64,000 bases of DNA from Botryllus schlosseri (lineage: Eukaryota): NCBI GenBank assembly GCA_051294905.1, contig CM119372.1, forward strand, positions 38,194,001 through 38,258,000. The letters run 5' to 3'. The position numbers and the translations under genes were made by a program. Positions 8,945 to 40,783 of this stretch are shown piece after piece. Every line of letters begins with the position of its first letter. Position 1 is the first letter of the stretch. The notes beneath the pieces are model-generated. The model saw only the letters and a list, made by a program, of their open reading frames with translations, made no database searches and had not been told where the DNA came from.

Positions 8945-9899
8945 TTTTAGAGCAATTCCAACGTGTAAGTAATTCAATAATTCATAGCTTTGGCAGTAGC
9001 CTAAAACTCGGTGCGCTGGGTAGCTGTTGTTAATAGCTGGTGAACTGCACTACCTAAGACAGACTTGGATGCAATATAGGTTGCCCGGTTTCGCCCTCAA
9101 TTAGGCTACTATAAATCAGCACAATTTAATTCCATTCCAAAACTGATCAAATTTAGGATGGCAGTACAGAACGACGCCGTGCTCTCTGTAGTCACTACCA
9201 GCATTAGGATTAGTCTCAGTGCAACCTACCTTGAAGTTAATTGATGTCCTGTTCAATGTTTTTTTTGCTATTTTCAAATACGTTTGAGGAAATTTGTCAG
9301 AAATGTAAAACTTGGCCTAAGACATACCATATGTATACTATTAGATCAGGGATGGGCAACCTGTGGCCGTAGAAGGGAATTTGTGCGGCCGTTGACACCC
9401 AATTCAATTAGTATGTGTTGGCGCGGCTGTCGACGTGCAACTGGAAATTACGAATTCACTCCCAAACTTTTGAGAGATTTTAATTAATCCTCAAATTTTC
9501 TTCGCGCAATTCAACATAACTTAATTTTTCGATTTTAATATAGTAGCACCCTTTCCAATCTGAACCGGAATAGGAATCGTGTGCTCCTCGCGCAAGAAAA
9601 TTGTTGATGGTACATTTGGGCGATTTCAATATATTTCCACTATTTCCATAACGGATACAATCGACAATCCTTATGGAGGTCAAGAAATAACAGCATGCAA
9701 CAAAATGACTAATAACAATTGGCCCACCCGAAGATGCATTATTATCATTTATAACTTGTCATAAATTTTCGAAAGCACTCACTCCATGAACCCTACCGAT
9801 AAATATGTTCACGTGGGCTGAGAAAGGATAAATATTTGATAATAATATGTGATACTGCAGTAGTATATAGGATCGGTCGTGAGGTGGCAGGGGTTCTTA

Positions 9900-10222
9900 C
9901 GGGCGGGGTGGCATGCGGCTGGAAAACCGGGGGTGGCATGCGGCTCTTATTTCTTATGGCGGGGGTGGCATGCGGCTATTGTGTCTTATGGCGGGGGTGG
10001 CATGCGGCTCTTATTTCTTATGGCGGGGGTCGCAAGCGGCTGAGAAACCCGGGGTGGCAAGCGGCTGTTTTGTCTTATGGCGGGGGTGGCATGCGGCTAT
10101 TTCGTCTTATGGCGGGGGTGGCGAGCGGCTCTTATTTCTTATGGCGGGGGTCGCAAGCGGCTGAGAAACCCGGGGTGGCAAGCGGCTGTTTTGTCTTATG
10201 GCGGGGGTGGCAAGCGGCTATT
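9900..10222 (+). repeat. G-rich subterminal minisatellite (32-bp unit with 25-bp variants)
   Basis: Unit CTTATGGCGGGGGTGGCATGCGGCTCTTATTT, interleaved with GGGGTGGCAAGCGGCTGAGAAACCC. The same repeat family occurs at ~23770-24085. Confidence 0.92.
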
Positions 10223-13200
10223 GTGGTCGCACGGTAACCCTTTTCAGCATAGGGATCGGTTGCATGCTAATGTTTTTAGGTATACGTGCGGTGACATGCT
10301 AACGACGATAATGTGTCTGTCATGTATTCTTACGGGATCTCTGGTGATGTGCCAATGTTTCTTATGGGTGCGGTCGTGAATCGTACTTTTAGGTAGAGGC
10401 ATCTCTCGCACGTCGTACTTTCGCATGTCGTACTTTCGCGTATAGGCTGTGGTGGTGATTCGCCATGCGTTCTTATGGGTGCGCTCGCACGTCGTACTTT
10501 CAAGTATAGGTATCTCTCGCATGTCGTATTGGAAACTCGTGTTGGCTCGCTCACGCGGTGAAATTTTAGTAATCAGTTTGTCGCAGAACTTGATTTCACT
10601 CGTAAGATTTAATAAGTAACGAATAACAGACCGCCAGTGTCGGTAACTTGAATAGCGACAAATTGTCACTTATTTCCGCTCTAACCCTAATCCTTTGTGA
10701 AGTGAACGCTTATTCAAAAGGGTGTGATATAATTTTAAAATCCAACGACCACTCACCGGATAATGCCGCAGACATAGCAATCCCTCATGCCCGCTCACAA
10801 GGTAATATTTCGGTAATTAGTTTGTCACAGAACCGTCGCAGACGGTGATTCAAAACCAACAATTTGTCACTTGCCCGCGATCGCTATATGTTTTGACACT
10901 TCAGAAGAGTGGTTGACTTTAGTTGCGTGATACAAATCATGAGAATATTCAATCAATGCGTCAATTTGTCAACTTGAAATGAAACTCACTACACAAATCA
11001 AGTCGATTCGTATCTGAATGTTTTAAATCGGTACAACTCTAATCCTTTGACAAATCCCTTAACGCGTTTTTGTTGAACCGAACGTAACCCGAATATTACT
11101 GACGCCGACTTTCAGCCGCATCGAATTATTCGCACATTCCGCGCCACTGTTTTCACACTTATAGAATCAATACCAACTATAACTCTACAAGAATCAAGAA
11201 TCACAAGTATGTGCATTACACAGTTATTGTCTTTATTAACTTGAAATCAAACACTTAACAAAAACACGCAACTAATCATTTGGCAACTCTAGCATTACCA
11301 AAAAATTCCAGTATTGTTGATTGAAAATCCTTGAGTCATTATTATCAAAAATGTTATAGTACCGCATCGGAATCCATTCGCGTGGTGTACTAAAGTTAAA
11401 TCCAGATAATCCAAAATGAAATATTTGGACTTTGACAAACATGACTACCAACTTTGATCCAGTCACATTTCAAGATCATACTTTGAAACAATCCTTGAAA
11501 CTTACAACTCTATTCACGACTGAGTTTTCCGTTTATCAAATAGAGTTTCAGTAAATACTATCGCGATATTTTAATGTGTTACTACACACAATAGAATCAA
11601 TCAATGAAATAGCACCTGTTGTAAATATTTCTAACTTGACAACCACTTGTGCATACCGCGATCGACTTGCGACGCGATGAGTTAAATCGGAATATTTCAA
11701 TCTATTTGTCGAAACCTTGAACAAACTATCAGGTTATTTTTTGTTGTAATCGAGTGAACGGCAATAGTATTACGTCTCAACATTTTAACATCTTCCCATA
11801 AACAAAAGAGTAAAATACAAAAAAAAACCTTGTCAAGTCAATCCGTTTGTAACTTACCCAACAAAGCAAAAAGTATCCTTATGAAAAGTAGACAAGACTA
11901 CGCCAGTAATCACTACAATCCAAAATCCATAACAAGCTCGGTTGTATTCATATCCCTACGACGCGTCTTTTGTTTTTCAACTGTAAAAGTCGTTACTATT
12001 TTGCAAGACAAAGTAATTACTACTTGATATATTTTATAAACCAAAGTAAATACTACTCGGTGTGTGGTTTGAGATTAACATATTACATTTGAGTATACCG
12101 GATTTGAATGCCTGACCAACGTAGTTGAGAATTCATTTCTTACAATCAAACGCCGGTTTTACATTGAAAGGTATCATACTGTAAACATAAGGATTGACAC
12201 ATTGATTTGATATATGAGATTTTGTAATGCTCGACCACGACTTGATTATTAAATTATTCACGATAATTAGACCCGATGTTGTGGTAAAGGTTATTAGAAA
12301 ACATCACTTTTGGCATCGAGTACCAGTCGAAGTGGGTGAACAATAACACCGAAAATGATAAGTGTGTTTCGTGCTACTATTGATACAAGTTCATTTCTAT
12401 CAGGCGAAATAAACGCCATCACAAAACGCAGAGCATGCAAAGGTCTTGATTGATATGAATTTCGATTTGTGTCTTATGATACCGGCAAGCATTTTGGAAA
12501 TATTATGATTCGTTAAACCAATGTCGTATGTCCGATTATTAATTGATTGGAAACTTGATCACGTACCTCGATCATTACAGAGGAGTATAACACCATTGTC
12601 CGACAATCTTTTACAAAAGGATCGAAACCAAGTAACCCAAAGTCGTTGCCGTCGCATAAACAATTTGTACGACGTTTGCTAAATGTACCCTATACTTTGG
12701 TGTACTAGAGATATTTGTAAAACACACTCTGGTAAAGAAATCGAAAAGATATCCTACACCTAAATCTGATAAAACCATTTTGCACTTTTTGTTCGTCAGT
12801 AGTATCCATTTGAATTTTTCCATTTCCTCTCGTCAAAGTAGATGTAATCATAGTCGCTAAAGAACTTACTTGGATGTGTTTGAATTCTAGACATAGTTAT
12901 GATTTACTCAACGCAAGACCCAAGAACAACCGTAGTTAACAACCGTGCACACATATCCAAAATATCGCACACTCCGCTATTCCTAAAGTACAAACACCCG
13001 ATACAAAATATTACTTGTTGTGTTGTTGCGGCATCATCTTCACAATATCACCATTTTGTTTGTGTCAATTAGTTACTTTGTATGTTACTCCACAACTCGT
13101 ACAAAAGTACGAAGGATATTAACATCACACTAAGTAATTAACTTTACTTGATATTCTCGCATTACGAAACTAAAGAATGGTTGGTTAGACTCTACAAACT

Positions 13201-14419
13201 GTTTCGATATCACAAGAACTTTATTGTCTGAATGGGTGTTCATGTATCTTAATAATCAAATAGTTCAACACAGAACTAGTACTAACAGAAACATCAGAGT
13301 TGTTTACACAAAAGTTTGTATATGTGCACAGTATGCGAATACCATGTGTAAGTCCAGCACAATTGCGGTATCCATCCGAGTTTAGTTAACACAAATTTAT
13401 TACAACGGAGTCACGTAAACTTTCGTGAAAGAAAAGCATACTCACTCCTAGAGGGTTATGTCAATGCCATAGCAGTTCCCCAACAGCAAAGTACATATGT
13501 TTTCTAGTCACGGTCCTTACATCTTTCACATAGATCAATCTACTTTGCTAACGAAAAGTGCTGAGTCATCACATGATCGCTCTCACAACAAAACAGCTAG
13601 TAGATATTATCATTCAAAATATTCCTAACCCTTTACACACCAGTAACAAATCATACAACGAATATGTTTTGTGGGTCGAATTGTTGTTCAGTGTCAAGTC
13701 TACCTGTTGAAACGTACATTAAAACAACACAGTCACAATCAAATTAAAACCACGAATCTATTTTCATTTCCTCGCAAACTGTCACATACAGAAAAATAAA
13801 TTTAATTTCCCAAAACATACTTGTAACCAATCGCTTTCATTAAACATACAACACCATAATAGCATTTACTTTCTACAACATAGACATTCCGGTGTAGTCA
13901 AGAAATATTTTTAATAATCAAAATCATCGACTTCTGTTTACGGCGTTAGTGTGTGCATGTCATACACGTGGGTCCGTATTAAAATGGACACGACACGACT
14001 GACTGTAAGGAGATAGAAGTCTATCACATAGATTTACATGTGGTCTTCGCTACGGTTTCAAAAACGAATCATCTCTTTTGCATTGATCTAGACCGAGCAA
14101 GTTAGTTAATGACCATGATTGTGTTTGTCATATGCGAATGATAGGGTTACTGTCAAATCTACATACAGCAATCTTCTGACGATCATAATAGCAATTTCAT
14201 TTTCCGCCCCTTCATAATTGTACAACTCGGTAACTACGTTTAACAAGACCAATCACACTACCAGCGTTGAACACAAGATACCTACCCAAGTAAAAATATC
14301 ATTCTGGTTTGGACAACTGACGTTTACCTGTGTAAAATTATCATTTTCACTTGGAGGTCCACCGTCACCTAACTAAAATACCATTGTCCTTTGGAGATTT
14401 ATCGTTTACCCAGTGTAAC

Positions 14420-14810
14420 AATCCCCTTTTCACTTGGAAATATATTTTTTCTCTTGGTAACAAACCTTTTTCACTTGGAAATATATTTTTTCTCTGGGTA
14501 ACAAACCTTTTTCACTTGGAAATATATTTTTTCTCTTGGTAACAAACCTTTTTCACTTGGAAATATATTTTTTCTCTTGGTAACAAACCTTTTTCACTTG
14601 GAAATATATTTTTTCTCTTGGTAATAAACCTTTTTCACTTGGAAATATATTTTTTCTCTTGGTAACAAACCTTTTTCACTTGGAAATATATTTTTTCTCT
14701 TGGTAACAAACCTTTTTCACTTGGAAATATATTTTTTCTCTGGGTAACAAACCTTTTTTCACTTGGAAATATATTTTTTCCCCGAGCAACAAACCATTTT
14801 CACTTGGCGG
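14420..14810 (+). repeat. 41-bp tandem array (~10 copies)
   Basis: AACAAACCTTTTTCACTTGGAAATATATTTTTTCTCTTGGT, with CACTTGG at 14431, 14472, 14513, 14554 etc. Confidence 0.95.
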
Positions 14811-16754
14811 GTCGTCGTTTACCTTAGTAAAAATATCATTTTCCTTTGGAGATCCGGCGTTTACCTAGTGTAACAATAAATTTTCTCTTGGTCATCTAGC
14901 TTTTCCTAGAGTAACAAAACCATTTTCATTTTGAAATCTGACAAACACACCTGACAATTTGGTATTTGTTGTATTGACGATAGTTTGAAATAGATTACAA
15001 CGAACAGTGACGGAAATATACACGGACTACCGGTTACAGAGTATACCTCCATCAGTCATATCACATCAATATCATCGGTTAACCACATACAATATACTCT
15101 TGTACACAGAAATGTATGTTTCGGAAAATTGGACAATAGGCTTCGATAGTTCTGTGATGTCCGGGTTCGTGCTTTGGATTTTCCAGAGTCAAAATGTCTG
15201 AATAAAACACCTCCTCGACGATGGTTGGTATGCGGAAAACGGTTGGATTTATGTTACCCATCGCGATAACAACTCCAGGTCGAGTTTCCCCCCTGTATGT
15301 TTACTATATTGTGTCTTTATTGGTCAGTGTATGTCTCGACATTCAGTTTGAAATCGGAAACCCTGAGAAAGTACGTAACCGGATCCGGATATCAACTCTG
15401 AATCGATAAACCAATGAACAATATTCAAAGTAAACATGTTACACCCTGTGTTTCCACGAAAAAATACCATCCAGACATACGTCGCGCTTGTTTGCCCACA
15501 ACAGTATACGCGTAAATGGAGGTGTGTGACATTGCATGCAATGTGTTGGTATACAAACATCGGGGAGTAAGCCTTCGATCCACTGACATTATCATAGCCG
15601 GTAGTTTTGATGTAGATCGAATGTCATCACACCCGATAACAATGTCATACCAATAAGCCACATTGCAATGACTCCAAGGAAAAGAAATGTATCGATTTAT
15701 CGGTTTCGTACATATCCAACAAAAACCTGGGTATATGATTGTGCACGGTTCGCATATTTGACTGTGATCACAATATTGGTATGTACTGTACAGTTCACTT
15801 TCACTGTCGTGCGAATAACCCATGTTACGGTTCCATGTTTGTGTGTCTGTATGTCCTGCTTCAGATTGACTCAGAGTCATTGCAATGTGGCTTATTGGTA
15901 TGACATTGTTATCGGGTGTGCTTGATGACATTCGATCTGCATCAAAATTACCGGCTATGACAATGTCTGTGGATCGAAGGCTTACTCCCCGATGTTTGTA
16001 TACCAACACATTGCATGCAATGTCACACACCTCCATTTACGCGTATACTGGTGTGGGCAAACAAGCGCGACGTATGTCTGGATGGTATTTTTTCGTGGGA
16101 ACACAGGGTGTAACATGTTTAGTTTGAATATTGTTCATTGGTTTATCGATTCAGAGTTGATATCCGGATCTGGTTACATACTTATCAGGGTTTCCGATTT
16201 CAAACTGAATGTCGAGACATACATTGACCAATAAAGACACAATATAGTAAACATGCAGGGGAAAACTCGACCTGGAATTGTTATCGCGATTGGTGACATA
16301 AATCCAACCGTTTTCCGAACACCGTTATCCACATACCAACCATCGTCGAGGACGTGTTTTATTCAGACATTTTGACTCTGGAAAATCCAAAGCACGAACC
16401 CGGACATCACAGAACTATCGAAGCCTATTGTCCAATTTTCCAAAACATGCATTTCGGTGTACAAGAGCATACTGTATGTGGTTAACCGATGATATTGATG
16501 TGATACGACTGATGGGGGTATACTCTGAAACCGGTAGTCCGTGTATATTTCCGTCACTGTTCGTTGTAATCTATTTCAAACTATCGTCAATACAACAAAT
16601 ACCAAATTGTCAGGTGTGTTTGTCAGATTTCAAAATGAAAATGGTTTTGTTACTCTAGGAAAAGCTAGATGGCCAAGAGAAAATGTAATGTTACACTGGG
16701 TAAACGCCAGATCTCCAAAGGAAAATGATATTTTTACTCAGGTAAACGACGACC

Positions 16755-17060
16755 CACCAAGTGAAAATGGTTTGTTGCTCAGGGAAAAAATATATTTCCA
16801 AGTGAAAATGGTTTGTTGCTCAGGGAAAAAATATATTTCCAAGTGAAAAAGGTTTGTTGCTCAGGTAAAAAATATATTTCCAAGTGAAAAAGGTTTGTTG
16901 TTCCGGGAAAAAATATATTTCCAAGTGAAAAAGGTTTGTTGTTCAGGAAAAAAATATATTTCCAAGTGAAAAAGGTTTGTTACCCAGGGAAAAAATAGAT
17001 TTCCAAAGGAAAGGGGTTTGTTACCCAGGGACAAAATAGATTTCCAAAGGAAAAGGGGTT
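16755..17060 (-). repeat. Inverted counterpart of the 41-bp array
   Basis: Repeats of CCAAGTGAAAAAGGTTTGTTGCTCAGGGAAAAAATATATTT. Confidence 0.92.
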
Positions 17061-20000
17061 TGTTACTCTGGGAAACGATAGACCCCCAAGTGAAAATGTA
17101 TTGTTACTCCGAGTAAACGATAAATCTCCAAAGGACAATGGTATTTTTACTCAGGTAACGGTTAACCTCCAGGTGAAAATGGAAATTTTACTTGGGTAGG
17201 TATCGTATGTTTAGTGTCGTTGGTATTGTTAAACGTTGTCGCCGGTAGCCGTTGGTATACTATTACGAATGTGAAAAGGATTTGCACGCCCTGTGCTGAG
17301 TATCGCGATAGTGAACATATTTTTCGCGTGACGAAACAAGATCGCTGTTTAAATGTTAATGCGTGCATTTCGACCACTCAGTTGCTGAACACGATAGAAG
17401 AGCCTACAGTGAGACCATTCTGTATGCTTCGATTAAAACCGCAACGGAGACCACTTATGAATCGACTCGAAGTATTTCAACCCTCGTTGTATTTAGTCAA
17501 TTCGAACCAATTTTGATAAAAGTCTCTCAGTATGACTCACACACTAACACCGTACACAGAAGTCGAAGATTGTGATATGGATTATTGAAAATATCTCTCA
17601 ACTACATGTACAACTAAATGGGGGTTTTGATGTTGTAGAAAGTAAACAATTTTATTGAGTTGTGTGTTTGATGAAAGTGATTGGTTACAAGTATGTGTTG
17701 AGGAATGAAAATTTATTTTCTGTACGCGACAGTTTGTGTCAAAATGAAAATAGATTCGTGGTTACAATTGAATCGTGGTTGTGCTGTTCAAATGTACGGT
17801 TCAACACGAAGACTTGACGCTCAACAACAACTCGACAAAACATATCCATTGCACGATTTATCACTGGTGTGCTAAGGGTTAGGAACATTTTTATTACGGA
17901 TCCATCTACCAGTGGTTTTGTTGTGACGGCAATCATGTGATGACTCCGCACTTTTCGTTTGCAAAGTTGGTTGTTTTGTGTGTAAGATTTAGGGACGGTG
18001 ACTAGAAAACATATGTACTCTACTCTGTTGTTGGAGTAACTGGTTTATTGCTATGACATTGCCAGAACCCTCGAGTAGTGACTATGCTTATCTTCTACGA
18101 AAGTTTACGTGACCCGGTGTAATAGATGTGTGTTGACTAAACTAGGATAGATACCGTGGTTGTGCAGGACTCACGCATGGTATTCACATATTGTACATAG
18201 GGCTATACAAACTTTTGTGTAAACAACTCTGATATTTCTTTAAGTAATAGTAGTGTATCGAGCTATGTGAATAATAAGCTACGTTGGATCATTCATGTCA
18301 AAACAGTTTGTAAAGTCTGACTAAGCATTCTTTACTTTGAAAGCGTAGGTAATCATTCTTCAGTTTCGTAGTACCAAAAAATATCGAGTAAGGTCGAGTA
18401 CTTTGTGTGATGTAAATATCTTTCATACTTTTGTACGAGTCGAGGGGATTATCAGTCGTATCATACAAGTAACTATAGTTGACACAAACAAAATGCGCGT
18501 GTATCGTTTTCAAAAGTCAAGAAAGTGAAAATAGTTTTCTGTTACGCTAAAACGTTTGCTATACTAGCATATTTTGTATTCGACAAAACGATGCACGCCG
18601 TTGAAACGATATTGGTCAAAATCCATAATGCGACGAGTCAGTAAAATACACGTTAAGTTCGCTGTGATCTGATTTATTCTTGTGTCACGCAAAAAGCAAC
18701 AATGTACAGTGTGTGTAATTTTGTTGAAATGATTATGAAATAAATAGTAATGACCTGTGTCGGTTGTTACCGTCGATGCATTAGCTTTAATCAAGTAAGT
18801 GATATTCACAAATATGTGTGTCGTTTTGACAACTCAAAGATTTTAGGTCTTGTGACCAGAAAAACGACCCTATAGTTGTGCACGCGTAGAAAATGACTAG
18901 GAGTTCAATCTCAACTAGGAATCGTGTTAGCGGTTGCGTGTTTTTCTTTGATGGTGTGCGTTCTACAAATAATTCCTGTTTACCAATCTAGGATGTATTG
19001 AGCAAACATTCTGCAATATGCTTTTGATGACTTCCTGTGGTTTGGTTTTATGATTACAATTTTAGAAGATTCAAATGATAATTTATGATCACTACTATAA
19101 ACATTGAACATCAATGCAACCACATTTTGTAGTATTCGGAAGCATATGTTTCGATTTTATTAGTGTTAAGAGTTTTCTGTATTACTCAAGCCTAGTTGAA
19201 TAGGAGGTGTCTAGCAAACATATTCCAGTTTGTTTTTGTAATGATCAAAGTGTGTGAGAAATGGTGCGAACGGATTAAGCATTAATCAAGCGGCGGTATG
19301 CCAATTCACACATCTTGACACCGGGGTAATGCGGGTATGTGTTTCAGTTCTTCGTCGCAGATTCCGACAATGAAGTATTGTGCCGGTTTTTAATCAGCAA
19401 ACGAAATTGTTGTTTCATCTTTAGTCTTGGTTACTGGAAACAATTACGTTTGTAAAATATTTTCTGATATCCGCGATACGCAGAGTAATTTGTACCAAGG
19501 TGGAATAATTTTCCAATCAAGAACATTTCAGACACGCATAGTTTTACAACTCAATATGTTAATAACAATGGTACTGAAAAGTTTGTTGCTGTCATAATAA
19601 CCTTTACCACAGCATCGGGTTTAATTACCGTGGATAATTTAATAATCAAGTCTTGATCAACTATTACATATGTCAAATCACTGTGTCAATCCTTGTTTAC
19701 ATCATGATAATTTTCAATATAACGCCTGCGTTTGATCGTGAGAAATAAATTCTTAACTACGTTGGTCAGACTTTCAAATGTCGTATATTCTCAACATATG
19801 CCAATCTCAAGTTGCGTGCACCGAGTAGTAATTACTTTATGTTACACGGTATACCGAGTAGTAATTACTTTCACAGTTGAACAAAAAAGACGAGTTGGCG
19901 GTATATGACTACAACCGAACTTGCTATGGATTTTAGATTGTAGCGATTGTATGTACTTGCGTAATCTTGAGTACTTTCCATACGGATACTGTTGAGTTGA

Positions 20001-21809
20001 TTGGGTGAGTTACAATCGGATTTACGTGACAAGGTTTTTCCTTGTTGACTCTTTGGAGTATGGTAAGATGTTAAAATGTCGAGACGTAATACTATTTCCG
20101 TTAACTCAATTGCAACAAAAAAAAATAACCAGACAGCTTGTTCAAGGTTTCGACAAATAGATTGAAATATTCCGATTTAACTCATCGCGTCGCAACTAGA
20201 TCGTGGTATGCACAAGTGGTTGTCAAGTTCGAAATATTTACAACAGGCGGTATTTCATTGACTGACTCGGTTGTGTGTAGTAACACATTAAAATATCGCG
20301 ATAGTAATTACTGAAACTCTATTTGACAAACGGAAAACTCAGTCGTGAATAGAGTTGTAAGGTTTCATTACTTGTTTCAAATCTAATTCTAAATATGACT
20401 GGATTGAAAGTTGGTAGTCATGTTTGTCAATTTATTTCAATTCAGACTATGTCAAAGTCCAAATATTTCATTTTGGATTATCTGAATTTACCTTTAGTAC
20501 ATCCCGCGAATGGATTCCGACACCGCACTAGAACATTTTTGATATGGACTCAAGGATTTTCAATCAACAATGCCTGAATTTTTTTGGTAATGCTAGAGTT
20601 GGCAAATGATTAGTTGCGTGTTTTTGTTAAGCTTTTGATTTCTCAGTATTAAATACAATTATTGTATACTTGTTATTCCTGATTCTCATTGAGCTAGTTG
20701 GTATTGATGCTATAGGTGTGAAAACAGCGGTGCGGAATGTGTGAATAATCCGATGCGGGCGAATGTTGGCGTCAGTAATATTCAGGTTACGTTCGATTCA
20801 ACAGATCGCGTTAATAGGATTTGTCAAAGGATTTGAGTTGGGTCGAATCAATACATTCAAATACGATTCAACTTGATTTGTGTAGTGAGTTTCATTTCAA
20901 GTTGACAAACTAACGCATTGCTTGAATATTTTCATGGATCTTATCACGCAACTAAAGTCAGCCACTATTCCGGAGGCGTGAAACATATAGCGATCGCGGG
21001 CAAGTGACAAATTGTTGGTTTTCGAATCACCGTCTGCGACGGTTCTGTGACAAACTAATTACCGAAATATTACCTTGTGAGCGGGCATGAGGAATTGCTA
21101 TGTCTGAAGCATTATCCGGTGAGTGGTCGTTGGATTTTAAAATTATATCACACCCTTTTGAATAAGCGTTCACTTCACGAAGGATTAGGGTTAGAGCGGA
21201 AATAAGTGACAATTTGTCGCTATTCAAGTTACCGACACTGGCGGTCTGTTATTCGTTACTTATTAAATCTTACGAGTGAAATCAAGTTCTGTGCCAAACT
21301 GCTTACGAAAATTTCACCGCGTTAGTGATCGATATGCCTGTAACACCAAGTCGCTAAAGATGGTTATGTCCGAGACATAACTATTTCACACCTATTTGAA
21401 GTGTTAATTTGTGACCGTTGTTATTGTTGATATTCGAATCGCCGTCTACGCCGGCTCTGTGGTAAACTAATTACCCAAACATTATCATGCGAGTAATTCC
21501 TAGATTTTGCAAACTATTTTCACGCCTTTTTTGTTGAGAGTACGACATTCCACCTGCAGTCTATAACCGAAAGTACGAATCACCGCCGCGTCCGTAAGAA
21601 TAACGATATATTAAAGTCGCACTCAACGTTTTAAAGTCGCACTCACCGTAAACGTTGGGATAAACCCGAATCCGTCATACATAATAATTTTGAATATACA
21701 CATTAACTAAGGATCAATCACGTGATCAATATACTTCGTAATCAACATCACCTCATGACCGTGCAGCCTATACCAACAACATTAGTTCACTACGACACAA
21801 GAATCTGCG

Positions 21810-22140
21810 GGCACATCATCGCCACAGCATATATCTGAAAGGGTACCATCATCACCACATCGGCACATCATCACCACAGCCTATATCTGAAAGGGTACCA
21901 TCATCACCGCATCCATAAGAACACATAGCACCTCACCACCACAAGGGGGGTCAAAAAGGGTACCATCGCCACCACGAGTTTTCAGGCGCCTCACCGCCGC
22001 AACCTATACCCGAAAGGGTACCATCATCACCGCATCCATAAGAACACATGGCACCTCACCGCCGAGAGGGGGTCTAAAAGGGTGCCATCACCACCACGAG
22101 TTTTCAGGCCCCTCACCACCGCACCCATGAGAACCCCATG
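21810..22140 (-). repeat. Subterminal ~123-bp GC-rich repeats at the right end of element 1
   Basis: Reverse complement of the 123-bp unit at 23170-23600 (GGTACCATC.CCACCACGAGTTTTCAGG). Confidence 0.85.
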
Positions 22141-23169
22141 CAAAAATCACCAATGTGCCAGCGATCGTATATACTACTCACTATCTTTCGATCATGGCCA
22201 ATTATATTAAATTTCAGCGCTCTTGTCGCCAGATCTAGCACTGCAAATTATGCTACTTTGAGATTACTCAGCAAGAAGATACTGTTTGCCCATGCGTAAC
22301 CGCCTGGAGTTGCGTATCTACTATCTATCCGTAGCTTAGTAATCTATAATTATATATCATCGGAGGCCGCACTCTGGTGACCGGTATAGCCAATGCAGTC
22401 GTCGGCCAGAATGATATATATTGGTTGTTTTCGGTGAAAAATCGCTAAATAATCGGTAAATACTTTTTCAAGAATCGCTAGATTTAGCGCTAGGCGCTAG
22501 ATCCATATTTTTTGGCGCCAAACCGGATGAAAAATCGCTAGATCTAGCGCGAAAATCGCTAAATTGGCAACACTGGCCCGGTGCATCCTATCTCGAATGA
22601 TTTTAAGTCGTGACGCAGTGGCGCCAGTAAGTCAATGTCTCTGCAATCACGAATCGCAAAGTCACTTGATTTTAAAAGCACAAAATCCGCAACTAATGGT
22701 TTCAAATTGTAACATGTACCCTCAATGTAAATGTAACTTTCCATAATATTGCAATACGCCATGATTTCGCGGACCCTTTGAGCAAACCAAATAGCACTCT
22801 GGGTGTTGCAGTTTTACATACTCCAAAGATTCTAAACATTTCCTTACGGTAGAAAATGCAGTGTAATATCGAACCAAGAGCTACGTTAACAGCTTACCGT
22901 AGGGCTGATGTCGTTAACAATAACACAGGATCGTCACCGCAACATCTAATAAACAAATTGATCTTAAATATGCATATCACGTCGTGCCGTTTGTATATAC
23001 GAGGACAAAGCCACCAGAATTCAACCGGAAACTCCGTCGGAGGCCCTGTATATAGTATAGCATAGTTCGACAGTCAGTGACCGACTGTTGGCCTGCAAGA
23101 AATTGAAGTACTATTCACTTATCGTTAGTAGTATAGTAGATCGCACAACCGGTGGCAGGGGCTCTTATG

Positions 23170-23620
23170 GGCGCGGCAGTGATGTGCCTGAAAACCCGGG
23201 GTGGTGATGGTACCCTTTTTGACCCCCCTTGTGGTGGTGATGTGCCATGTGTTCTTATGGATGCGGTGATGATGGTACCCTTTCTGGTATAGGCTGCGGT
23301 GATGATGTGCCTGAAAACCCGGGGTGGTGATGGTACCCTTTTAGACCCCCCTTGTGGTGGTGATGTGCCATGCGTTCTTATGGGTGCGGTGATGATGGTA
23401 CCCTTTCAGATATAGGCTGCGGTGATGATGTGCCTGAAAACCCGGGGTGGTGATGGTACCCTTTTTGACCCCCCTTGCGGTGGTGATGTGCCATGTGTTC
23501 TTATGGATGCGGTGATGATGGTACCCTTTCTGGTATAGGCTGCGGTGATGATGTGCCTGAAAACCCGGGGTGGTGATGGTACCCTTTCAGACCCCCATGT
23601 GGTGATGATGTGCCTATGTG
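23170..23620 (+). repeat. 123-bp tandem repeat (~3.5 copies)
   Basis: CCTGAAAACCCGGGG recurs at 23187, 23310, 23433 and 23556. Confidence 0.93.
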
Positions 23621-23769
23621 GTGATGATGGTACACTTTCAGATATATGCTGTGGCGATGATGTGCCCACGGATTCTTGTGTCGTAGTGAACTAACGTTGT
23701 GGATATAGGCCGCGGCGATGATGTGCCTGTCATGTATTCTTACGGGATCTGTGGTGACTCGCCATGTGT

Positions 23770-24085
23770 TCTTATGGGTGCGGTGGCGAGCGGCTATTGC
23801 GTCTTATGGCGGGGGTGGCGAGCGGCTCTTATTTCTTATGGCGGGGGTGGCGAGCGGCTCTTATTTCTTACGACGGAGGTGGCAAGCGGCTCTTATGGGT
23901 GCGGTGGTGAGGTGCCTGAAAACTCGTGGTGGCGAGCGGCTCTTATGTCTTATGGGCGCGGTGGCGAGCGGCTATTGCGTCTTATGGCGGGGGTGGTGAG
24001 CGGCTCTTATGTCTTATGGGCGCGGTGGCGAGCGGCTATTGCGTCTTATGGCGGGGGTCGCAAGCGGCTCTTATGTCTTGTGGTG
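23770..24085 (+). repeat. 32-bp G-rich minisatellite
   Basis: CTTATGGCGGGGGTGGCGAGCGGCTCTTATTT-type units. Confidence 0.9.
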
Positions 24086-27000
24086 GCACGGTAAACCTTT
24101 TCAGTATAGTAATCGGTCGCATGCTAACGTTGTGGGTATAGGCTGCGGCGGGGACTCGTATTGAAAACTCTTGGTCGTGATTCACCCTTTCGGGTATAGG
24201 CTGCGGTGGTGACTCGTATGGAAAACTCGTGGTCGTGATTCGCCTTTTTTGCTATAGGCGGTGGCGGTGATTCGCCTGTCGTGTATTCTTACGGGATCTG
24301 TGGTGACTCGCCATGTGTTCTTATGGGTGCGGTCGTGATTCGCACTTTCAGGCATTTCTCGCGTGGTGTTGAATATGTACGAGTCACCAACAATAACCGC
24401 GCAGACGGAAACGCGGCCTGTTTGCAAGAGGATTACGCAGCGGGTGCGACCTATATTTCGAATGACCTGCGCGCTGAATTGTTTCCCATACAGCTGTGTG
24501 CTACTATCGATTATTACACTAATCCAGTCAGTGCGAAATAGTTTGCTAAATCTAGGAATCACTTCCAAGGTAATATTTTGGTAATTAGTTTACCGCAGAG
24601 CCGTCGTAGACGGCGATTCGAATATCAACGCGATCGCTCACAAGATAATACCTAAGACATAACCATCGCTCGCGACTCGCTGTTACACACATGCCGATCG
24701 TTGACAATGTAATATTTTGGTAATTAGTTTGTCACAGAGCCGGCGCAGACGGTGATTCGAATATCAACAATAGCCGCGTTCACAAACCAACACTTCAAAA
24801 ACGTGTAAAATAGGTTACAAATCCCACGATCGTTCACAAGATAACACCAAAGACATAGCCATTTCTCGCGTCTTGTCATTACATACATCCCAATCGCTAC
24901 AGTGTAATATGTCGATGGTTGTTACTATCAAGTAATAAGTAATGAATAACAGTACCAGCGCAGACCGTGATTCGAAAACCAACAATTTGACACTTGCACG
25001 CGATCGCTATATGTTTTGACACTTCGGAACAGTCGTTGACTTTGCGTGATACAAATCATGAAAATTTTAATCAGTGTGTCAATTTGTCAACTTGAAATGA
25101 AACTTACTACACAGCTCAAGTTGATTCGTATCTGAATGTGTTAATTCGGTACAATTCTAATTATTTTGAGTTATCTTTTTAACGCGATCTTTTGATTCGG
25201 CCGTAACCTGAATATTACTGACGCCAACATTCAGCCGCGTCGGATTATTCACACATTCCGCGCCGTCGTTTTCACAGCTATAAAATCAATACCAACTATA
25301 ACTCTACAAGAATCAAGAATCACAAGTATGTGCATTATACAGTTATTGTCTTTATCAACATGAAATCAAACGCTTAACAAAAACACACAACTCATCATTT
25401 GCCAACTCCAGCATCACCAAAAAATTCAGGTATTGTGGATTGAAAATCCTTGAGTCTTTATTATCAAAAATGTTATAGTGCGGTGTCGGAATCCATTCGC
25501 AGGATGTACTAAAGGTAAATTCAGATAATCCAAAATGAAATATCTCGACTTTGACATAGTCTGAATTGAAATAGGATTGACATACATGACTACTACCATC
25601 TTTCCAAGTGCCATTTCGAAATTATACGCACATTGATTTGAAACATGTAATGAAACATTACAACTCTATTCGCGATCTGGCTTTCCGTTTGCCAAAGAGA
25701 CATTTTACCATACTCAAAAGAATTATTCGCAACATTAACCGGTGTTACAAATCTAGTTTTCACTTACTTGATCATATCACTACAACTCACAAACTTGAAT
25801 TAATTCATCTGGCTGTATTCATATGACCGATAATTTTTATTCAACTGTAAAGGTCGTTGCTATTCTGTAAGACAAAGTATTTACTAATCGGTACATATAC
25901 GACTTGGCATAAACCTATTACATTTTGAGTATACGAGATTTGAATGTCTGAACAATAACTGAGAATTAAATTATCACAAGTGAATCCGTATATTACAGCG
26001 TAAAAGATATTGGAATGTCAGCAACTCTGTACGGTCATAGTTACTACCACATTACCTAATTTACCCGGCCAACTCGTCATGATCATCCCTGAAATCAACA
26101 CAACATGACCACTGACTTGAGTTAACCCAAAACATCATAAAGTTTTAAATCCATTTGTAGCTTACGTATTATTTGAATGCGTGTTATGTTTTATTGCAAT
26201 CGAGTTAACGGAAATAGTATTAAGGCTCGACATTTTAACGTTTTACCATACTCAGTCAATCAGGAAAACCTTGTCAAGTAAATCCGTTTGTAACTTACCC
26301 GACCAACTCAAACAGTATCAGTATGAAAAACAGCCAAGCATACACGAGTCCATACAATCACTAAATCCTAAAATCCATAACAAGTTCGGATTTACTCATA
26401 TCCCTACGACGCATCTTTTTTATTCAACTTTACAAGTCGTTTCTATTCTGTAAGATAGAGGAATTACTACGCGGTATATTCTACAAGACAAAGTAATTAT
26501 TACTCGATATATTTTGTAAGACAAAAGTAATTACCACTCGGTGCAGGTGACTTGAGATTAACATAATATGTTTGAGTATACGAGATTTGAAAGTCTGATC
26601 AACGTATAGTTGCGACTTCATTTCTTACAATCGAACGCTGGTGTTATATCTAACGTTACCATTCTGTAAACATAAGGATTGATACATTGATGCGCCATAT
26701 GTAATAGTTGATCATGACTTGATTATTAAATTATTCGTGTTAATTAGACCCGGTGTTGTGGTAAAGGTTATTATGACAACAACAATCTTTTCAGTACCGT
26801 TGTTATTAACATATCGAGTTGTAAAACTATGCGTGTCTGAAATGTTCATGTTTGAAAAATTATTCCACCTTGGTACATATCACTCTGCGTATCGCGGATA
26901 TCAGAAAATATTTTACAAAAGTAATTGTTTCCAGTAACCAAGACTAAATATGAAACAACAATTTCGTTTGCTGATTAACAGCCGTGCAATACTTTATTGT

Positions 27001-28824
27001 CAGAATCTTTGACAGTGAATTGAAACATACTCACCTTACACAGTACGAGTAAATCACTTTGGACTTGGGCGCGACCTTTAATCTGTGTTAAACTCTGTTC
27101 ACACTCTCCGTCGAATGCGTGAAATGTAAAACATTACGAGGTTACACTATAAGACTTTGATCAGCAGAGAAGCAATTTTGAATATCTTCACTGGTGCACC
27201 TTATTCTACTACACTTGGGTAATATACAAAAACTCATAGCAGTATGAAAATCGCAATAGGTGCTACACTGAAATTTACAAAATGTGTTTGTATTGTTGCT
27301 CAAAGTAGTGATCATGAATTATCATTTGAATCTTCTAAAGTAATTGTAATCGTAAAACCAAACTTGCGAAAGTCATTACCATAACAAAAGAATATTGTAG
27401 GTTGCTTGCTAAATGTATGCCGGAAATATTTGTAGAACGCTCACGACCAAAGAAATCGGAAATTGTCATTCATCAAAGTAAATGTCGTCACAATACTCTG
27501 CCACTAAAAGACCATACTTGTATGTGATTGAATCCCTAACAATTAACTATTTTTCAAACGAGTAAAATTTATTACTTGAGTTTCGCCGCTTACTATATGT
27601 ATATGTAAACTCAACCGTCTTTTAACATCACAAAGACATTGATAAAAAGTAGGCAATCAAACGCTACAAGTTTAACTTTTGTAGGTTGTGTATGATTACC
27701 CCACGCAACTCATTTCTTACCAAAGGTATATGAAATATATTCATGTTACACGAAAATACTCGATATTCCCAGAAACATCCGAGTTGTTTACACAAAAGTT
27801 TGTATGTGTACAGTATGCGAATACCATGTGTAAGTCCAGCACAATTGCAGTATCTATCCGAGTTTAGTTAACACAATTTACGACACCGAGGTCGCGTCAT
27901 TTTTCGTAAGAAAAACCAACCAACCAATCCTGTAGGATATGTCAATGTCATAGCAATAAATCAGCAACTACAACAACAGAGTACATATGTTTTCTAGTTA
28001 CGGTGCTTACATCTTACACACAAATCAATCTACTTTGCTAACGAAAAGTGCGGAGTCATCACATGGTTGTCCTCACAACAATACAACTAAAACATACTAT
28101 CATACGAAATGGTCGTTATAGTTTGCACACCAACGGTACATCATGCAAGTAACAAGTCTCGAGAATCCAGTTATTGAAAAAACGTGAAAGTGTTTCTCCT
28201 GCGCCAAGTCGTTATGTTGACGAAAGCGTATATTGTAATATCATGATCGATTTGCATTCGTTGGTCACAAAATGTCACTACTCTAAATAATTATTTTACA
28301 CTCAAACACAAAAGCATACTAGTCACCATTCGTTTTCATCAAGCACGAGTTCAAGAAACTTACTACGACATGAATTCTTATTTTTATTTTGTGTAAATAG
28401 TTAATAATTAATTTTAGTAACACTATATCAACATCATCGAGTTGTGTGAATAGATTTACATGCGGTCTTGTGGTTTTAATCGAAGTACACAGCACGGTCT
28501 AATGTAGAGCCATCTTTATTGTACAGCAACTCGGTAATCGAAATGCATTAACATTTAAACAACGATCTTGGTTCGTCACGCGAAAAATATCTTTACTGTC
28601 CCGACACTCTGATACTCTGCACAAGATGTGTAAATCATTTTCATGCTCGTAATATTACGCTAACGAGATACCGACGTCGAGCGAAAACGTTTAACAACAT
28701 CAATGACACTGAACATACGATACCTACCCGAGTAAAAATATCATTTCCGTTTGGACAACTGACGTTTACCTGTGTAATATTACCATTTTCCTTTGGAGAT
28801 CTGACGTTTACCTAGAGTAAGACA

Positions 28825-29280
28825 CTATTTTCACTTGGAAATATATTTTTCCCTCAGCAACAAACCATTTTCACTTGGAAATATATTTTTTCCCTGAGCA
28901 ACAAACCATTTTCATTTGGCGGTCCGTCGTTTACCTGAGTAAAAACATCACTTTCCTTTGGAGATCCATCGTTTACCCAGAGTAACAATACATTTTCACT
29001 TTGGGTTCTATCCTTTCCTAGAGTAACAAAACCATTTTCGTTTGGAAATAAATTTTTTCCCTGGGTAACAAACCCTTTTCACTTGGAAATATATTTTTTC
29101 CTAGGGTAACAAAACCATTTTCGTTTATAAATAAATTTTTTCACTTTCGTTTATAAATATATTTTTTCACTGAGTAACAAACCCCTTTCGTTTAGAAATA
29201 TATTTTTTCTCTGAGCAACGATACCGTTTCACTTGGAAATCTATTTTTTCCCTGAGTAACAATACCATTTTCGTTTAGAA
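28825..29280 (+). repeat. Degenerate 41-bp array in the element 2 loop
   Basis: Repeats of TTTTCACTTGGAAATATATTTTTTCCCTGAG(C/T)AACAAACCA. Confidence 0.85.
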
Positions 29281-32200
29281 ATCAGACAACCAATCCCGAC
29301 AATTTGATATTTTTGTATATTGTTTACAGTGGATAGTGGCAAAATATACACCAACAACGACCCCGATACATTTGTGTAATCACATATTCACTTGTTATGG
29401 TGCATCCCATCAAATTCGACGGTTAGTCACACACACACACACACAATAACAATGCGCAATTTCGATATGACTGCGATGTCCGGGTTCGTGCTTTAGATTT
29501 TCCAGAATCAATCCGTCTAAAGTTGTAATCCCCTCGACTTTGTTAACTGATTGATACACGGATAACAATCCGTGGAAAATGTAGGAACGCATGCTACCCA
29601 TCGAGCTAACGATTCTAGGTTACTTGTGATTAATTTTCTTGCTCACACTATACAGATTATAGGTACAGGGATATGTAGCGGTAATCGATTTGGTCAATGC
29701 ATATCGCCCCATTCAGTATGGAATTACAGACCCAATACAGGTCAGTTCCGGATATTCAACGCAAAGCGATAAAGCAGAACCAATGACCAAATGTAGATTC
29801 ATAACCCTTGATTTTTTCGTTAAAAATGACAATACATATCGAATATACTTTACGATTGTTCAACCCTACCAAGTATCCGCGTAAATGTAGTGGATGACAT
29901 TACATACAATGGGTCGGTGTACAAATGTTGGGTGTTTATGCACACATCGGTATGACCCATAGACAACATCATCATACCCTCCAGGACTTCGTTATTGCAT
30001 CGCGAGGTCAATAAAATCGATTTTGTGTACTCAATCGGTGGCATAGACGACGGAAGGCTTGGAGATCCAATGTAAAATACAGACAAACAAACGGGTATAT
30101 TTGTCCATCTTGGTTATTCACTCAACTACCATTGGTGCTCTCGATACAGCGAACGGTACAGTATGTAACGCATATCATTAGAGTGATATAACCACAGGTG
30201 CGTGGGGTAATCATACACAACCTACAAAAGTTAAACTTGTAGCGTTTGATTGCCTACTTTTTATCAATGTCTTTGTGATGTTAAAAGACGGTTGAGTTTA
30301 CATATACATATAGTAAGCGGCGAAACTCAAGTAATAAATTTTACTCGTTTGAAAAATAGTTAATTGTTAGGGATTCAATCACATACAAGTATGGTCTTTT
30401 AGTGGCAGAGTATTGTGACGACATTTACTTTGATGAATGACAATTTCCGATTTCTTTGGTCGTGAGCGTTCTACAAATATTTCCGGCATACATTTAGCAA
30501 GCAACCTACAATATTCTTTTGTTATGGTAATGACTTTCGCAAGTTTGGTTTTACGATTACAATTACTTTAGAAGATTCAAATGATAATTCATGATCACTA
30601 CTTTGAGCAACAATGCAAACACATTTTGTAAATTTCAGTGTAGCACCTATTGCGATTTTCATACTGCTATGAGTTTTTGTATATTACCAAAGTGTAGTAG
30701 AATAAGGTGCACCAGTGAAGATATTCAAAATTGCTTCTCTGCTGATCAAAGTCTTATAGTGTAACCTCGTAATGTTTTACATTTCACGCATTCGACAGAG
30801 AGTGTGAACAGAGTTTAACACGGATTAAAGGTCGCGCCCAAGTCCAAAGTGATTTACTCGTACTGTGTAAGGTGAGTATGTTTCAATTCACTGTCAAAGA
30901 TTCTGACAATAAAGTATTGCACGGCTGTTAATCAGCAAACGAAATTGTTGTTTCATATTTAGTCTTGGTTACTGGAAACAATTACATTTGTAAAATATTT
31001 TCTGATATCCGCGATACGCAGAGTGATATGTACCAAGGTGGAATAATTTTTCAATCATGAACATTTCAGACACGCATAGTTTTACAACTCGATATGTTAA
31101 TAACAACGGTACTGAAAAGATTGTTGTTGTCATAATAACCTTTACCACAACACCGGGTCTAATTAACACGAATAATTTAATAATCAAGCCATGATCAACT
31201 ATTACATATGGCGCATCAATGTATCAATCCTTATGTTTACAGAATGGTAACGTTAGATATAACACCAGCGTTCGATTGTAAGAAATGAAGTCGCAACTAT
31301 ACGTTGATCAGACTTTCAAATCTCGTATACTCAAACATATTATGTTAATCTCAAGTCACCTGCACCGAGTGGTAATTACTTTTGTCTTACAAAATATATC
31401 GAGTAATAATTACTTTGTCTTGTAGAATATACCGCGTAGTAATTCCTCTATCTTACAGAATAGAAACGACTTGTAAAGTTGAATAAAAAAGATGCGTCGT
31501 AGGGATATGAGTAAATCCGAACTTGTTATGGATTTTAGGATTTAGTGATTGTATGGACTCGTGTATGCTTGGCTGTTTTTCATACTGATACTGTTTGAGT
31601 TGGTCGGGTAAGTTACAAACGGATTTACTTGACAAGGTTTTCCTGATTGACTGAGTATGGTAAAATGTTAAAATGTCGAGCCTTAATACTATTTCCGTTA
31701 ACTCGATTGCAATAAAACATAACCCGCATTCAAATAATACGTAAGCTACAAGTGGATTTAAAACTTTATAATGTTTTGGGTTAACTCAAGTCAGTGGTCA
31801 TGTTGTGTTGATTTCAGGGATGATCATGACGAGTTGGCCGGGTAAATTAGGTAATGTGGTAGTAACTATGACCGTACAGAGTTGCTGACATTCCAATATC
31901 TTTTACGCTGTAATATACGGATTCACTTGTGATAATTTAATTCTCAGTTATTGTTCAGACATTCAAATCTCGTATACTCAAAATGTAATAGGTTTATGCC
32001 AAGTCGTATATGTACCGATTAGTAAATACTTTGTCTTACAGAATAGCAACGACCTTTACAGTTGAATAAAAATTATCGGTCATATGAATACAGCCAGATG
32101 AATTAATTCAAGTTTGTGAGTTGTAGTGATATGATCAAGTAAGTGAAAACTAGATTTGTAACACCGGTTAATGTTGCGAATAATTCTTTTGAGTATGGTA

Positions 32201-34342
32201 AAATGTCTCTTTGGCAAACGGAAAGTCAGATCGCGAATAGAGTTGTAATGTTTCATTACATGTTTCAAATCAATGTGCGTATAATTTCGAAATGGCACTT
32301 GGAAAGATGTTAGTAGTCATGTATGTCAATCAGACATGGGGTAATCGCGATCAGTAATCGTAATCGATTACGACGATTACAGCATTTTGAAGTAATCGTA
32401 ATTGCAATCGATTACATTCGAAAAAAATCCGAAGTAATCGTAATCGTAATCGACTATTTCCCATATCTAATCGATTTGTTTGTGAAAGAACGATTACTTT
32501 CTGTTTGTACAAGGACTATGACATAAACTGAATATTCGTGAACAAGAATGAGATAATATACTACGTTAGCGTTAGCACAAACGTCTGTTTTCAAACGCCA
32601 CTGACTCATTATTACGTCAGAAGTATTAGCTCCGCTCGTCATTGCGTAACAAGTATCCACACATAGTAAACAGACATGCGATGGGCATTGTAGTGTGATT
32701 GTAAGAACACCTCCCGTGGTGTATATCAGGTTATCAATACACTACAGAAGCCGCTACCTCGCAGCAGGATATTGATCGCCACTCTGCCTATAGTTTCGAA
32801 TAGTAACTTATGTATTAATGTTTGGTTGTGCTTAGTTAAACGCAGTTTACCATTGCTGCTTGGCGAGCAGGAGGCCTACGTACGCACGTGCACCTGACGA
32901 AGATTCGGAATTTTGTACTCGTCGAATAAGACATTGCAGTTTCCACAACGAAGCATTACAAATAAACAGCTGCTGATATATATCATAACCGAGCCGTGCT
33001 TAGCCGTTTCTCGTAACAGCAGCTCACTGTATATGTATTAAGTTGAAGGCAGAATTTTTATGTTAACCATATCTTATTCTCATATAACTACTTGAAACGG
33101 GCGTCAATCGTTATTTCACAGTTCGTTACTTAGCATTTGGACCTGCCGCCATAACCATCCGCTTATATAGCCTGACATGTTAGCGTGGGTTGTAGCTAGA
33201 ATCAGCAATTGAGCCAAAACAGCAATTCCCCAGTCCAACCGTTGGTCAATTTTCAAAAGTGAATTTCGTCAATAATATTGGTAATTGCATTATATTACTA
33301 TTCATTTATAACCTCTCTGAGCCCCGAGTGTCAGATTTACCTGTAAAGCTGGGGCACGTAATTCATATTCATAGCATCTGGTATGTTGTTATAATTACTG
33401 CATGTTGTTAATTCGCGACCTCCAGTCCGTTGTATAATCACAAGATATTGTACTCGCCCAAACGTAGCAGACTAAAAGAATATCTTTTGTGAGAAGCACA
33501 CACAAATTGTCATGGCTTTATTCTTTTGTGGATGCGCCGGGTGACATTTGCATTGTGGGCCCAGATTGGAAGCAGCACCGTAACTGCCGCACCCCAAACC
33601 CCCCAATTGGGGGGGGCCCGAGCTCGAAGGGGGCCCAAAATTATTTCGTGAATTAGCATAAATTAAAGAGTATTTTTTTAAAATTTATGCAACTTTTTCA
33701 AATTTTTTTCGCGCTGCGCGCGATGTCAACCTGCCAAACATCTTCAATATTTGTACTCTTCCTCCAAGAAAAAACACGCAAGATTTATAGAAATAGACAT
33801 ATCGGCGTTGGTCATTACAGCGCCACGACGCACCAAGACATATAACGATTTAGGACATATTACATGCGACTCCAAGAAGTGTGCCAGAACGATCGGCAGC
33901 GCGAAAACTTTGGCCGAAAAGGACTGCCCTTACGCTGTCCGAAAACTTCGTTATATATACAAAATACATATAGGTTTAATTGTCAATAGGCGCCTAAATG
34001 ACTGGCGCCAAATGTTCCTGTCTTGGCAATCTGAACCTCAGAAGACAAATACCATCCCGCAGGGAAGAATTATATGCCAGTGAAGAAATACCAATTTGAA
34101 ATCGTCTGCGTCTTTTAGTTTAGTACGTTTGGGCTATTCTATATTTTTTGATATAGCAGACAGGAGGTCACGTCACATCATGTAACGAAGTCATACCAAC
34201 GGGTCCGCCCGCCCGAAGATGTTTAATTATTATTTACGGGCGCTACAGTTTCCGGTAAATCTGATAACGTGAGCAGAGAGGACAAGAAATTGATAGCAAT
34301 ATATATGCAATTCCCGATCTTATTGGCCGCTTTTATCATGAA

Positions 34343-34861
34343 CAGGGCTGGGCACAATGATTCGAGTACTCGAATCAGAATCGAGTATTAATTTTAATGA
34401 TTCGAGTCGAGTAGTAAAGGACGATTTTTTTGAGTACTGAAATTGTACTCTTCTCGCCACTGAATGTTAATTTATCAACGAGAATTATAGTTTCGATACC
34501 AATTTTCACTGTAGAAGCCTTGGAACCTTGATTGGCTGTATCGTAGCATACGAAACATATGGTACAAAGCTACGAAGGTTACTGGATGTAGCACATTTCC
34601 GAAGTCATGATTATCCCACAACATCATCACCAAGTGAAATGAAGTCGGTATGGTCGAAAAAAAATACCAAAGTATCATTTATGAGACGGATAACAGGCAT
34701 TAAATTATTTGTGGTGACATAAGAGTTAGATATTTGAACTTTGACGTATTATATTAAGTCATGGCGTCATAATGGGTGATACTAGATTACTGGACTCGAC
34801 TCGAAGCATATTACGTGATTCAAAATCGAATCACTCCGGTACTCGATTTTGCCCAGTCCTA
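34343..34861. mobile_element. Nested hAT MITE
   Basis: TIR CAGGGCTGGGCA / TGCCCAGTCCTA; TSD ATCATGAA; TCGAGT subterminal motifs. Confidence 0.85.
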
Positions 34862-40758: not shown

Positions 40759-40783
40759 TTTTAATCCGTATTAAGTTTGATCA

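Follow-up and report, generated by a model that had tools for sequence, protein, structure and literature searches.

A probable hybrid copy of a palindromic, non-autonomous Polinton satellite family in the genome of Botryllus schlosseri

The stretch of DNA analysed here, which we call the window, comprises 64,000 nt of Botryllus schlosseri (assembly GCA_051294905.1, contig CM119372.1, positions 38,194,001 to 38,258,000 of the forward strand; contig C2 of this 495.5-Mb assembly). Its subject is an element at window positions 9859-22178, framed by flanks that carry RMI2 and TMEM70-family domains, which identify the surroundings as animal genome. The original prediction, made from the letters of this stretch, described the element as a palindrome with Polinton/Maverick-like termini and took it for an integrated snap-back genome, that is, one end of a Polinton duplicated by template switching, with the core genes lost. 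The inverted termini are borne out: they read AGTAGTATATA[G/C]GATCG, exactly, at 9859 and 22178. The left terminus (AGTAGTATATAGGATCG, 9859..9875, plus strand) is a Polinton end of the (AGT)2 type, and at the right terminus (AGTAGTATATACGATCG, 22162..22178, minus strand) the outermost 32 nt match the end of a coding Polinton from the same genome (L032) at 94% identity. With up to 2 mismatches allowed, these 17-nt termini are the sole two matches in the 64-kb window, where 0.03 would be expected, and two or more matches arose in none of 100 shuffles.

GC-rich subterminal arrays are present at both ends, as had been described, but the two are built of different units. The left tandem array (9894..10223) consists of sub-units of ~32 nt in a 121-nt period and has homologues in the terminal inverted repeat (TIR) of the coding Polinton L031/L032. 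The right arrays (21810..22123) have periods of 52, 64 and 123 nt, with units unlike those on the left; their GC-rich part at 21868-22123 shows period 123/64, against 121/32 at 9894-10223. Further in, a left arm (10547..15674, plus strand) and a right arm (15874..21328, minus strand) fold around a 199-bp centre remnant (15675..15873), of which ~195 nt derive from the family centre described below. Three inverted alignments lie on one antidiagonal around this centre: 10553-12296 against 19595-21322 (84.2% identity, bit score 1639), 13052-13965 against 17530-18495 (76.4%, bit score 457) and 14367-15674 against 15874-17197 (90.2%, bit score 1705). The last of these includes a 41-nt tandem array of 9.5 units in the inner left arm (14415..14807), mirrored at 16757-17096. 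Of the 5816 nt that make up the left arm, the aligned parts cover ~3966 (68%), and inside the 17-nt terminus the outer 690 nt on the left and 850 nt on the right contain no inverted alignment of at least 150 nt. The predicted fold and loop size thus hold, whereas the supposedly matching ~6-kb arms are 76-90% alike over ~68% of their length, far lower than the 94-99.97% found in other copies.

The element also lacks the 6-bp target-site duplication (TSD) of a Polinton insertion: its flanking hexamers, TACTGC and CACTAT, are equal at three of six positions, an agreement with a chance probability of ~17%. Its sole stop-to-stop frame of at least 150 amino acids (aa) spans the centre and gave only a sub-threshold Pfam match, to a RING finger (E 0.0088, 16.3 bits against a cut-off of 27).

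We searched the assembly with the terminal pattern AGTAGTATANNNGATCG and obtained 410 forward and 421 reverse matches (831 termini), against 0 and 5 for the reversed control. Among the first 100 termini listed, 72 make up 36 inward-facing plus/minus pairs and 28 are solo; the median pair length is 14,189 nt, and 27 of the 36 pairs measure 12.5-17.5 kb. We then fetched ten copies, each as two half-loci, that were among those matching the first 702 nt of the window best. Palindromic structure was found in all ten. Their arms are ~6.5 kb long, and the main arm alignments are 94.2-99.97% identical, with at least 98% in nine of the ten. Perfect 6-bp TSDs flank all eight scorable copies; in the other two of the ten the left end was not located by the pattern, and these were left unscored. 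Between copies, arm identity is patchy and ranges over 72-97%. Centre length is 0.65-0.98 kb in seven of the sampled copies and 1.3-3.9 kb in three. A typical member is therefore an element with two AGTAGT-starting Polinton-type ends and GC-rich arrays, near-identical and mostly non-coding arms of ~6.5 kb, and a unique centre of ~0.9 kb with an open reading frame (ORF).

Two coding Polintons from the same genome were compared with this family. One, on contig C11 (L029/L030), was reached through a single genome-wide PF04665 match and encodes an A32-type ATPase and an rve-chromodomain integrase; we rejected it as the family's partner because its termini are unlike those of the family. It also encodes a caspase-domain protein (PF00656, E 4.2e-13) at L030:6694-7464. 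Genome-wide Pfam searches for PF03175 and PF00770 gave no match, but the positive controls were equally silent. Used as a genome probe, the C11 integrase gave several identity classes among 144 scored of 770 candidate matches, and two matches of the largest class lie within pairs of family termini, at C1:30838413-30854242 and C1:40818160-40833973.

The first of these is the coding Polinton L031/L032, 15.83 kb long, both ends of which read AGTAGTATAGTAGATCGCTGGCACATTGG. It is flanked by the 6-bp TSD CACGGG and has TIRs of 884 nt that are 99.3% identical and include arrays with a 33-nt step. Among its products are a protein-primed family B polymerase (pPolB; PF03175, 31.2 bits against a cut-off of 25.8, E 1.5e-7), an integrase with rve and chromodomain (PF00665, E 2.3e-16) and an ATPase in which Walker motifs are seen by eye and which has 37% identity to its A32-type counterpart on C11. 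Capsid and protease were not identified by name in it with Pfam. A full-length relative of the kind that had been anticipated therefore exists as far as pPolB, integrase, ATPase and TSD are concerned.

How much of the family derives from such an element can be read from the arms. Their outer 0.1-1.3 kb is homologous to the TIR or left end of the sampled coding Polinton. Copy L027/L028 has a segment corresponding to L031 positions 597-1868 in both arms, at 91.5% identity; the other copies share just 125-220 nt of it. A 215-aa ORF on the minus strand of L031 (1137-1781), for which Pfam holds no family, is open in both arms of L027/L028 (L027:2091-2741 and L028:6870-7520), where the proteins are 91% identical, so that more of the helper's left end has been acquired by one sublineage or more. 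By tblastn with ORFs of at least 80 aa, neither pPolB, integrase and ATPase nor the other large ORFs of both Polintons match the window or the ten copies; only TIR-linked stretches and the 215-aa ORF do, and the predicted absence of core genes is in this respect confirmed. Pfam searches above the curated cut-off were likewise negative for 62 ORFs of L017 and for 63 arm and centre ORFs of L019/20 and L027/28 together with a 217-aa ORF of L027, with a single exception, a THAP domain within an enlarged centre, which is probably a foreign insertion.

Judged by its sequence, the family is a non-autonomous relative of Polintons: the gene complement of an autonomous Polinton (pPolB, rve integrase, and capsid, protease and ATPase) was not found in it, while the (AGT)2//(ACT)2 termini that it has in common with the coding Polinton mark it as a Polinton-derived non-autonomous element. 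The proposed link to Polintons/Mavericks is in this way upheld by the ends, by the 6-bp TSDs in eight of eight relatives and by the same-ended coding Polinton. Very long inverted arms that code for little and have tandem repeats close to the ends are also what one would see in a foldback cut-and-paste transposon of another superfamily (Drosophila FB/MULE, or the P-type Galileo) that merely resembles a Polinton at its ends. We consider this exceedingly improbable, given that TSDs of 6 bp occur in eight of eight cases, that an element with pPolB and integrase has the arrays, the outermost 17-32 nt and as much as 1.3 kb in common with the family, and that three copies contain no transposase-like ORF.

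The centre of the palindrome tells most about how the family arose. A homologous centre is found in nine of the ten copies, in either orientation, as expected since the element is symmetric. It contains in these nine an ORF of 91 codons with the same start, the same TGA stop and no indels in the common 91 codons; one copy has two additional codons. Across the deep splits, at a synonymous divergence (dS) of 0.65-1.1, the ratio of nonsynonymous to synonymous divergence (dN/dS) is 0.24-0.40. A genome search for this ORF gave 1168 candidates, of which 150 were scored; they are 86-100% identical, and 143 of the 150 have no internal stop. Seven matches that we checked sit midway in terminus pairs. 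In the window copy ~750 nt of the centre are missing, and with them two thirds of the ORF; the last 29 codons and the stop are retained (15672..15761, plus strand), with stop codons upstream.

No Pfam family matches the 91-aa product, and at E values up to 1 there are just two single-member matches (E 0.08-0.11). A profile search of 1.84 billion representatives returned one protein, of 91 aa and unnamed. An AlphaFold model is all-beta, at low confidence (mean predicted local distance difference test score, pLDDT, 55.6). A relic of the packaging ATPase was considered on account of a tblastn match (E 0.015 in a tiny database) and rejected, as hhalign gave a probability of just 7.8%.

A common centre with a gene under constraint implies a single origin, followed by propagation of the palindromic form. 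The original prediction of a sporadic snap-back (copy-back) genome, formed by template switching on one Polinton and then integrated, is thereby placed in a different light. Polinton ends with their arrays, the absence of core genes and the palindromic layout all accord with it, and copy L027/28 does repeat 1.3 kb of the Polinton left end in both of its arms. However, sporadic switches would be expected to vary in their turn-round points, whereas nine of ten copies have one homologous centre and ORF, with at least 143 genomic copies open. In the window element, moreover, neither arm is a copy of the other, and a TSD is lacking. We therefore regard a one-off snap-back event as very unlikely: hundreds of copies share the architecture, and nine of ten sampled share the centre with its 91-aa ORF. 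Nor does the idea of one duplicated end describe the window copy, with its arms from different sublineages and without a TSD.

To which members of the family the two window arms are related was analysed with a maximum-likelihood tree of an arm segment of 0.3-0.77 kb in 22 rows, from which L027/28 and four second pieces were omitted for lack of a common core. In this tree the two arms are sisters in each of nine sampled copies and also in a second family copy in the window, described below. The left arm of the window element (10827-11437) joins the arms of L019/20, at 97% identity (support 100/99, end branch 0.016), and its right arm (20305-21048) joins those of L023-26, at 95% identity (support 100/100, end branch 0.017). 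A second left-arm segment, 13195-13595, has 89% identity to L023 but 76% to its own right arm, whose corresponding part does not exceed 81% identity to any of the copies sampled; the right arm at 17.3-19.1 kb is a rare variant, again with an identity of 81% or less to any of them. An old palindrome whose arms have diverged in place does not give this pattern, and we rejected it, because arms of other copies are nearer to each of the two (97% and 95%) than these are to one another, and because the second window copy, although rearranged, still pairs at 99%.

Taken together, the unlike arms, the unlike arrays, the shortened centre and the missing TSD point to a join of two different family members. 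We conclude that the element at 9859-22178 is probably a degenerate hybrid copy, now inert, of a palindromic, non-autonomous Polinton satellite family with members of ~14 kb. Most likely the hybrid would have arisen by a rearrangement between two integrated copies: their palindrome centres would have recombined, or been broken and joined, and the DNA between the copies lost. This origin is ranked first because the missing TSD fits it, ahead of copy-choice before integration and, after that, of misassembly. A search for TSD partners of the presumed parents remained at chance level (11 matches against 9 in the control, and 10 against 85), but the deletion would remove them anyway. No empty-site joint was seen among the 15 of 50 joints that were inspected.

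Copy-choice is usual for strand-displacing polymerases, and a hybrid could also have formed before integration if the polymerase switched templates between two co-replicating members, with the centre deleted and the product then integrated. One such event would cover both the unlike arms and the loss of ~750 nt of centre, with a single breakpoint at the border of arm and centre. An element inserted in that state should, however, be flanked by a 6-bp TSD, and just three of six flank bases are equal although the end branches of the arms are only ~0.016, so that we think this course of events improbable.

The third possibility, to which we give somewhat less credence again, is an assembly artefact in which two family copies were misjoined at their similar centres. 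Near-perfect long palindromes are hard to assemble, and arms from different sublineages without a TSD are what a misjoin would leave. Contigs of four sequencing runs cover all 30 bins of the window at 97% identity or more, which is weak evidence against an artefact; the pieces are short, at ~80-270 nt, and neither the centre nor either end is spanned by any of them. Also against an artefact is the centre itself, which is a unique shortened form and not the common 0.9-kb sequence where a collapse would be expected. In run X19, a single contig of depth 17.6 connects 22180, the base following the right terminus, with 9809, which lies 50 nt outside the left terminus; 32 letters of it fall on the shorter side of this joint.

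Several points weigh against a hybrid satellite copy in the form in which we propose it. The join at the centre could still be an assembly error. The arms at ~2-6.5 kb from the end have no detectable homology to the two fetched Polintons, and duplication of one Polinton end therefore accounts for the outer part only. Replication and insertion by Polinton proteins would rest on the common ends, the TSD length and partial homology. The ten copies were not drawn at random from the 831 termini and are biased towards relatives of the window copy, and how the arms are kept identical is a matter of conjecture.

With these reservations, a scheme for the propagation of the satellites can be outlined. 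Co-resident Polintons that share the termini would supply an integrase, which inserts the satellites and makes the 6-bp duplications, and a protein-primed polymerase, for which the repeated AGT triplet at each end would serve as a starting point. A sliding or jumping-back start occurs in protein-primed replicators, and the repeated AGT end fits this. The displaced single strand of a palindrome could then fold into a hairpin. Arms that are alike within a copy and unlike between copies need homogenisation or regeneration in each round; identity might be kept by mismatch correction within the hairpin, or both arms might be re-made from one template, while lineages drift apart. After integration, the arms would be free to drift. 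Regeneration from one template would account for within-copy identities of up to 99.97% while copies differ by 8-25%.

One can go further and imagine a true satellite replicon in which what is inherited is a single arm together with the centre. The strand would snap back in each round and be filled in or repaired, and the 91-aa protein would divert the replication or packaging machinery of the helper. We put this forward tentatively, as a conjecture that is rather doubtful at present. A second near-perfect palindromic family in the genome, with Bcl-2 genes, suggests that such an architecture may be a recurrent, selectable way to parasitise protein-primed, virus-like elements.

In that second family both arms contain Bcl-2-domain ORFs. 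Of 290 candidate matches to PF00452, 150 were scored, and among them are 59 pairs in convergent orientation, whose spacings of 2.8-20 kb fall into discrete classes. One such palindrome (L033+L034, C1:28022600-28038600) has arms of 7857 nt that are 99.81% identical, a centre of ~33 nt and ends that read AGTAGTAGGGTTTGATC; no TSD was seen at this copy. We considered whether the Bcl-2 gene belongs to the window family and rejected the idea: it occurs neither in the window nor in the ten copies, and the Bcl-2 family has other subterminal sequence. The flanks of the family copy on contig C9 (L015:1-1009 and L016:7004-7997) are 90-95% identical to inner parts of L033/L034, and this copy seems to have been inserted into a member of the Bcl-2 palindromic family.

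The second copy of the window family mentioned above is a separate element at 23126..38776. Its left end, AGTAGTATAGTAGATCG, lies at 23126, 947 nt downstream of the hybrid element. Pieces of its arms pair at 99% (24963-25590 with 38151-38776, and 25575-27710 with 30196-32331), but it is broken by a foreign stretch of ~5.8 kb at ~32.3-38.1 kb, and part of one inner arm is missing. Its right end is absent from the window, and other DNA stands in its place. This includes a 673-aa open frame (38749-40770, minus strand) with a DTGA motif recognised by eye, which looks like part of a retrotransposon gag-protease-polymerase; Pfam holds no family for it.

On the left of the hybrid element, an element with inverted repeats of ~200-560 nt (76-79% identical) occupies 7986-9852 and stops 6 nt before 9859. 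Towards the end of the window, an inverted repeat of 400 nt (61626-62025 against 62401-62800, 93.75% identical, with a 375-nt spacer) is probably another small transposon. Elsewhere in the genome, three same-strand family termini at C1:41602688, 41612249 and 41621778, ~9.5 kb apart and near the end of contig C1, may represent a tandem array of partial elements. As to insertion sites, six of nine TSDs (L013-L028 and L031/L032) have CG at positions 3-4 (CACGTT, CGCGGT, CCCGAT, ATCGCA, AACGTA and CACGGG), which hints at a target preference.

The palindromic Polinton satellite family is apparently undescribed. A literature search by title and the start of the abstract found no description of palindromic or high-copy non-autonomous Polinton derivatives, and one paper states that in a lizard non-autonomous Polintons appear to be absent (PMC3014272). 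Polintons/Mavericks are thought to replicate in the manner of adenoviruses, from protein-primed ends, which has hardly been tested, and a palindromic family offers natural material for this. It would indicate which sequences suffice in cis for propagation, namely the terminus and the arrays; it suggests a hairpin intermediate; and it adds a satellite layer to the biology of Polintons. The window copy would show in addition that long palindromes also recombine or break at their centres and leave hybrids without TSDs, and are thus a likely source of chromosomal rearrangement.

Among known systems, the closest are the Polintons/Mavericks themselves. The family resembles them in its (AGT)2 ends, 6-bp TSDs and TIRs, with terminus and arrays common to the co-resident element that encodes pPolB, rve integrase and ATPase. 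It differs in having no polymerase, integrase, ATPase or capsid genes, in a copy number in the hundreds, in inverted repeats of ~6.5 kb each, which occupy over 90% of its length, where those of the coding partner measure 884 nt, and in a unique centre of its own with a lineage-restricted 91-aa ORF. In vertebrate Mavericks, the 5'-(AGT)2//(ACT)2-3' end-motif and the 6-bp TSD are given as hallmarks by Barreat and Katzourakis 2021 (PMC8097293).

The foldback (FB) elements of Drosophila, of which PMC6431247 makes mention, are a further comparison. Like those of the family, FB arms are long and inverted, consist in part of tandem repeats and are mostly non-coding; the TSD is 6 bp here and 9 bp in FB, and ends and helper are unlike.

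Defective adenovirus genomes are akin in that adenovirus, too, is a protein-primed replicator. Daniell reportedly observed, in 1976, long inverted repetitions in the DNA of incomplete adenovirus particles. Those genomes are sporadic by-products of the laboratory, whereas what we describe is a heritable, diversified and integrated lineage with a gene of its own. In adenovirus the packaging signal adjoins the left terminal repeat, and incomplete particles contain left-end DNA, according to two reviews (PMC5033970, PMC12090768). The copy-back or snap-back defective interfering genomes of RNA viruses, as outlined in PMC6140465, share with the family a hairpin-like form, a structure of one end plus its complement and dependence on a helper. 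They are RNA, however, arise de novo in each infection and stay unintegrated, while the family has one common turn-round region. For such a lineage, 'satellite' is a better fitting term than 'defective interfering genome'.

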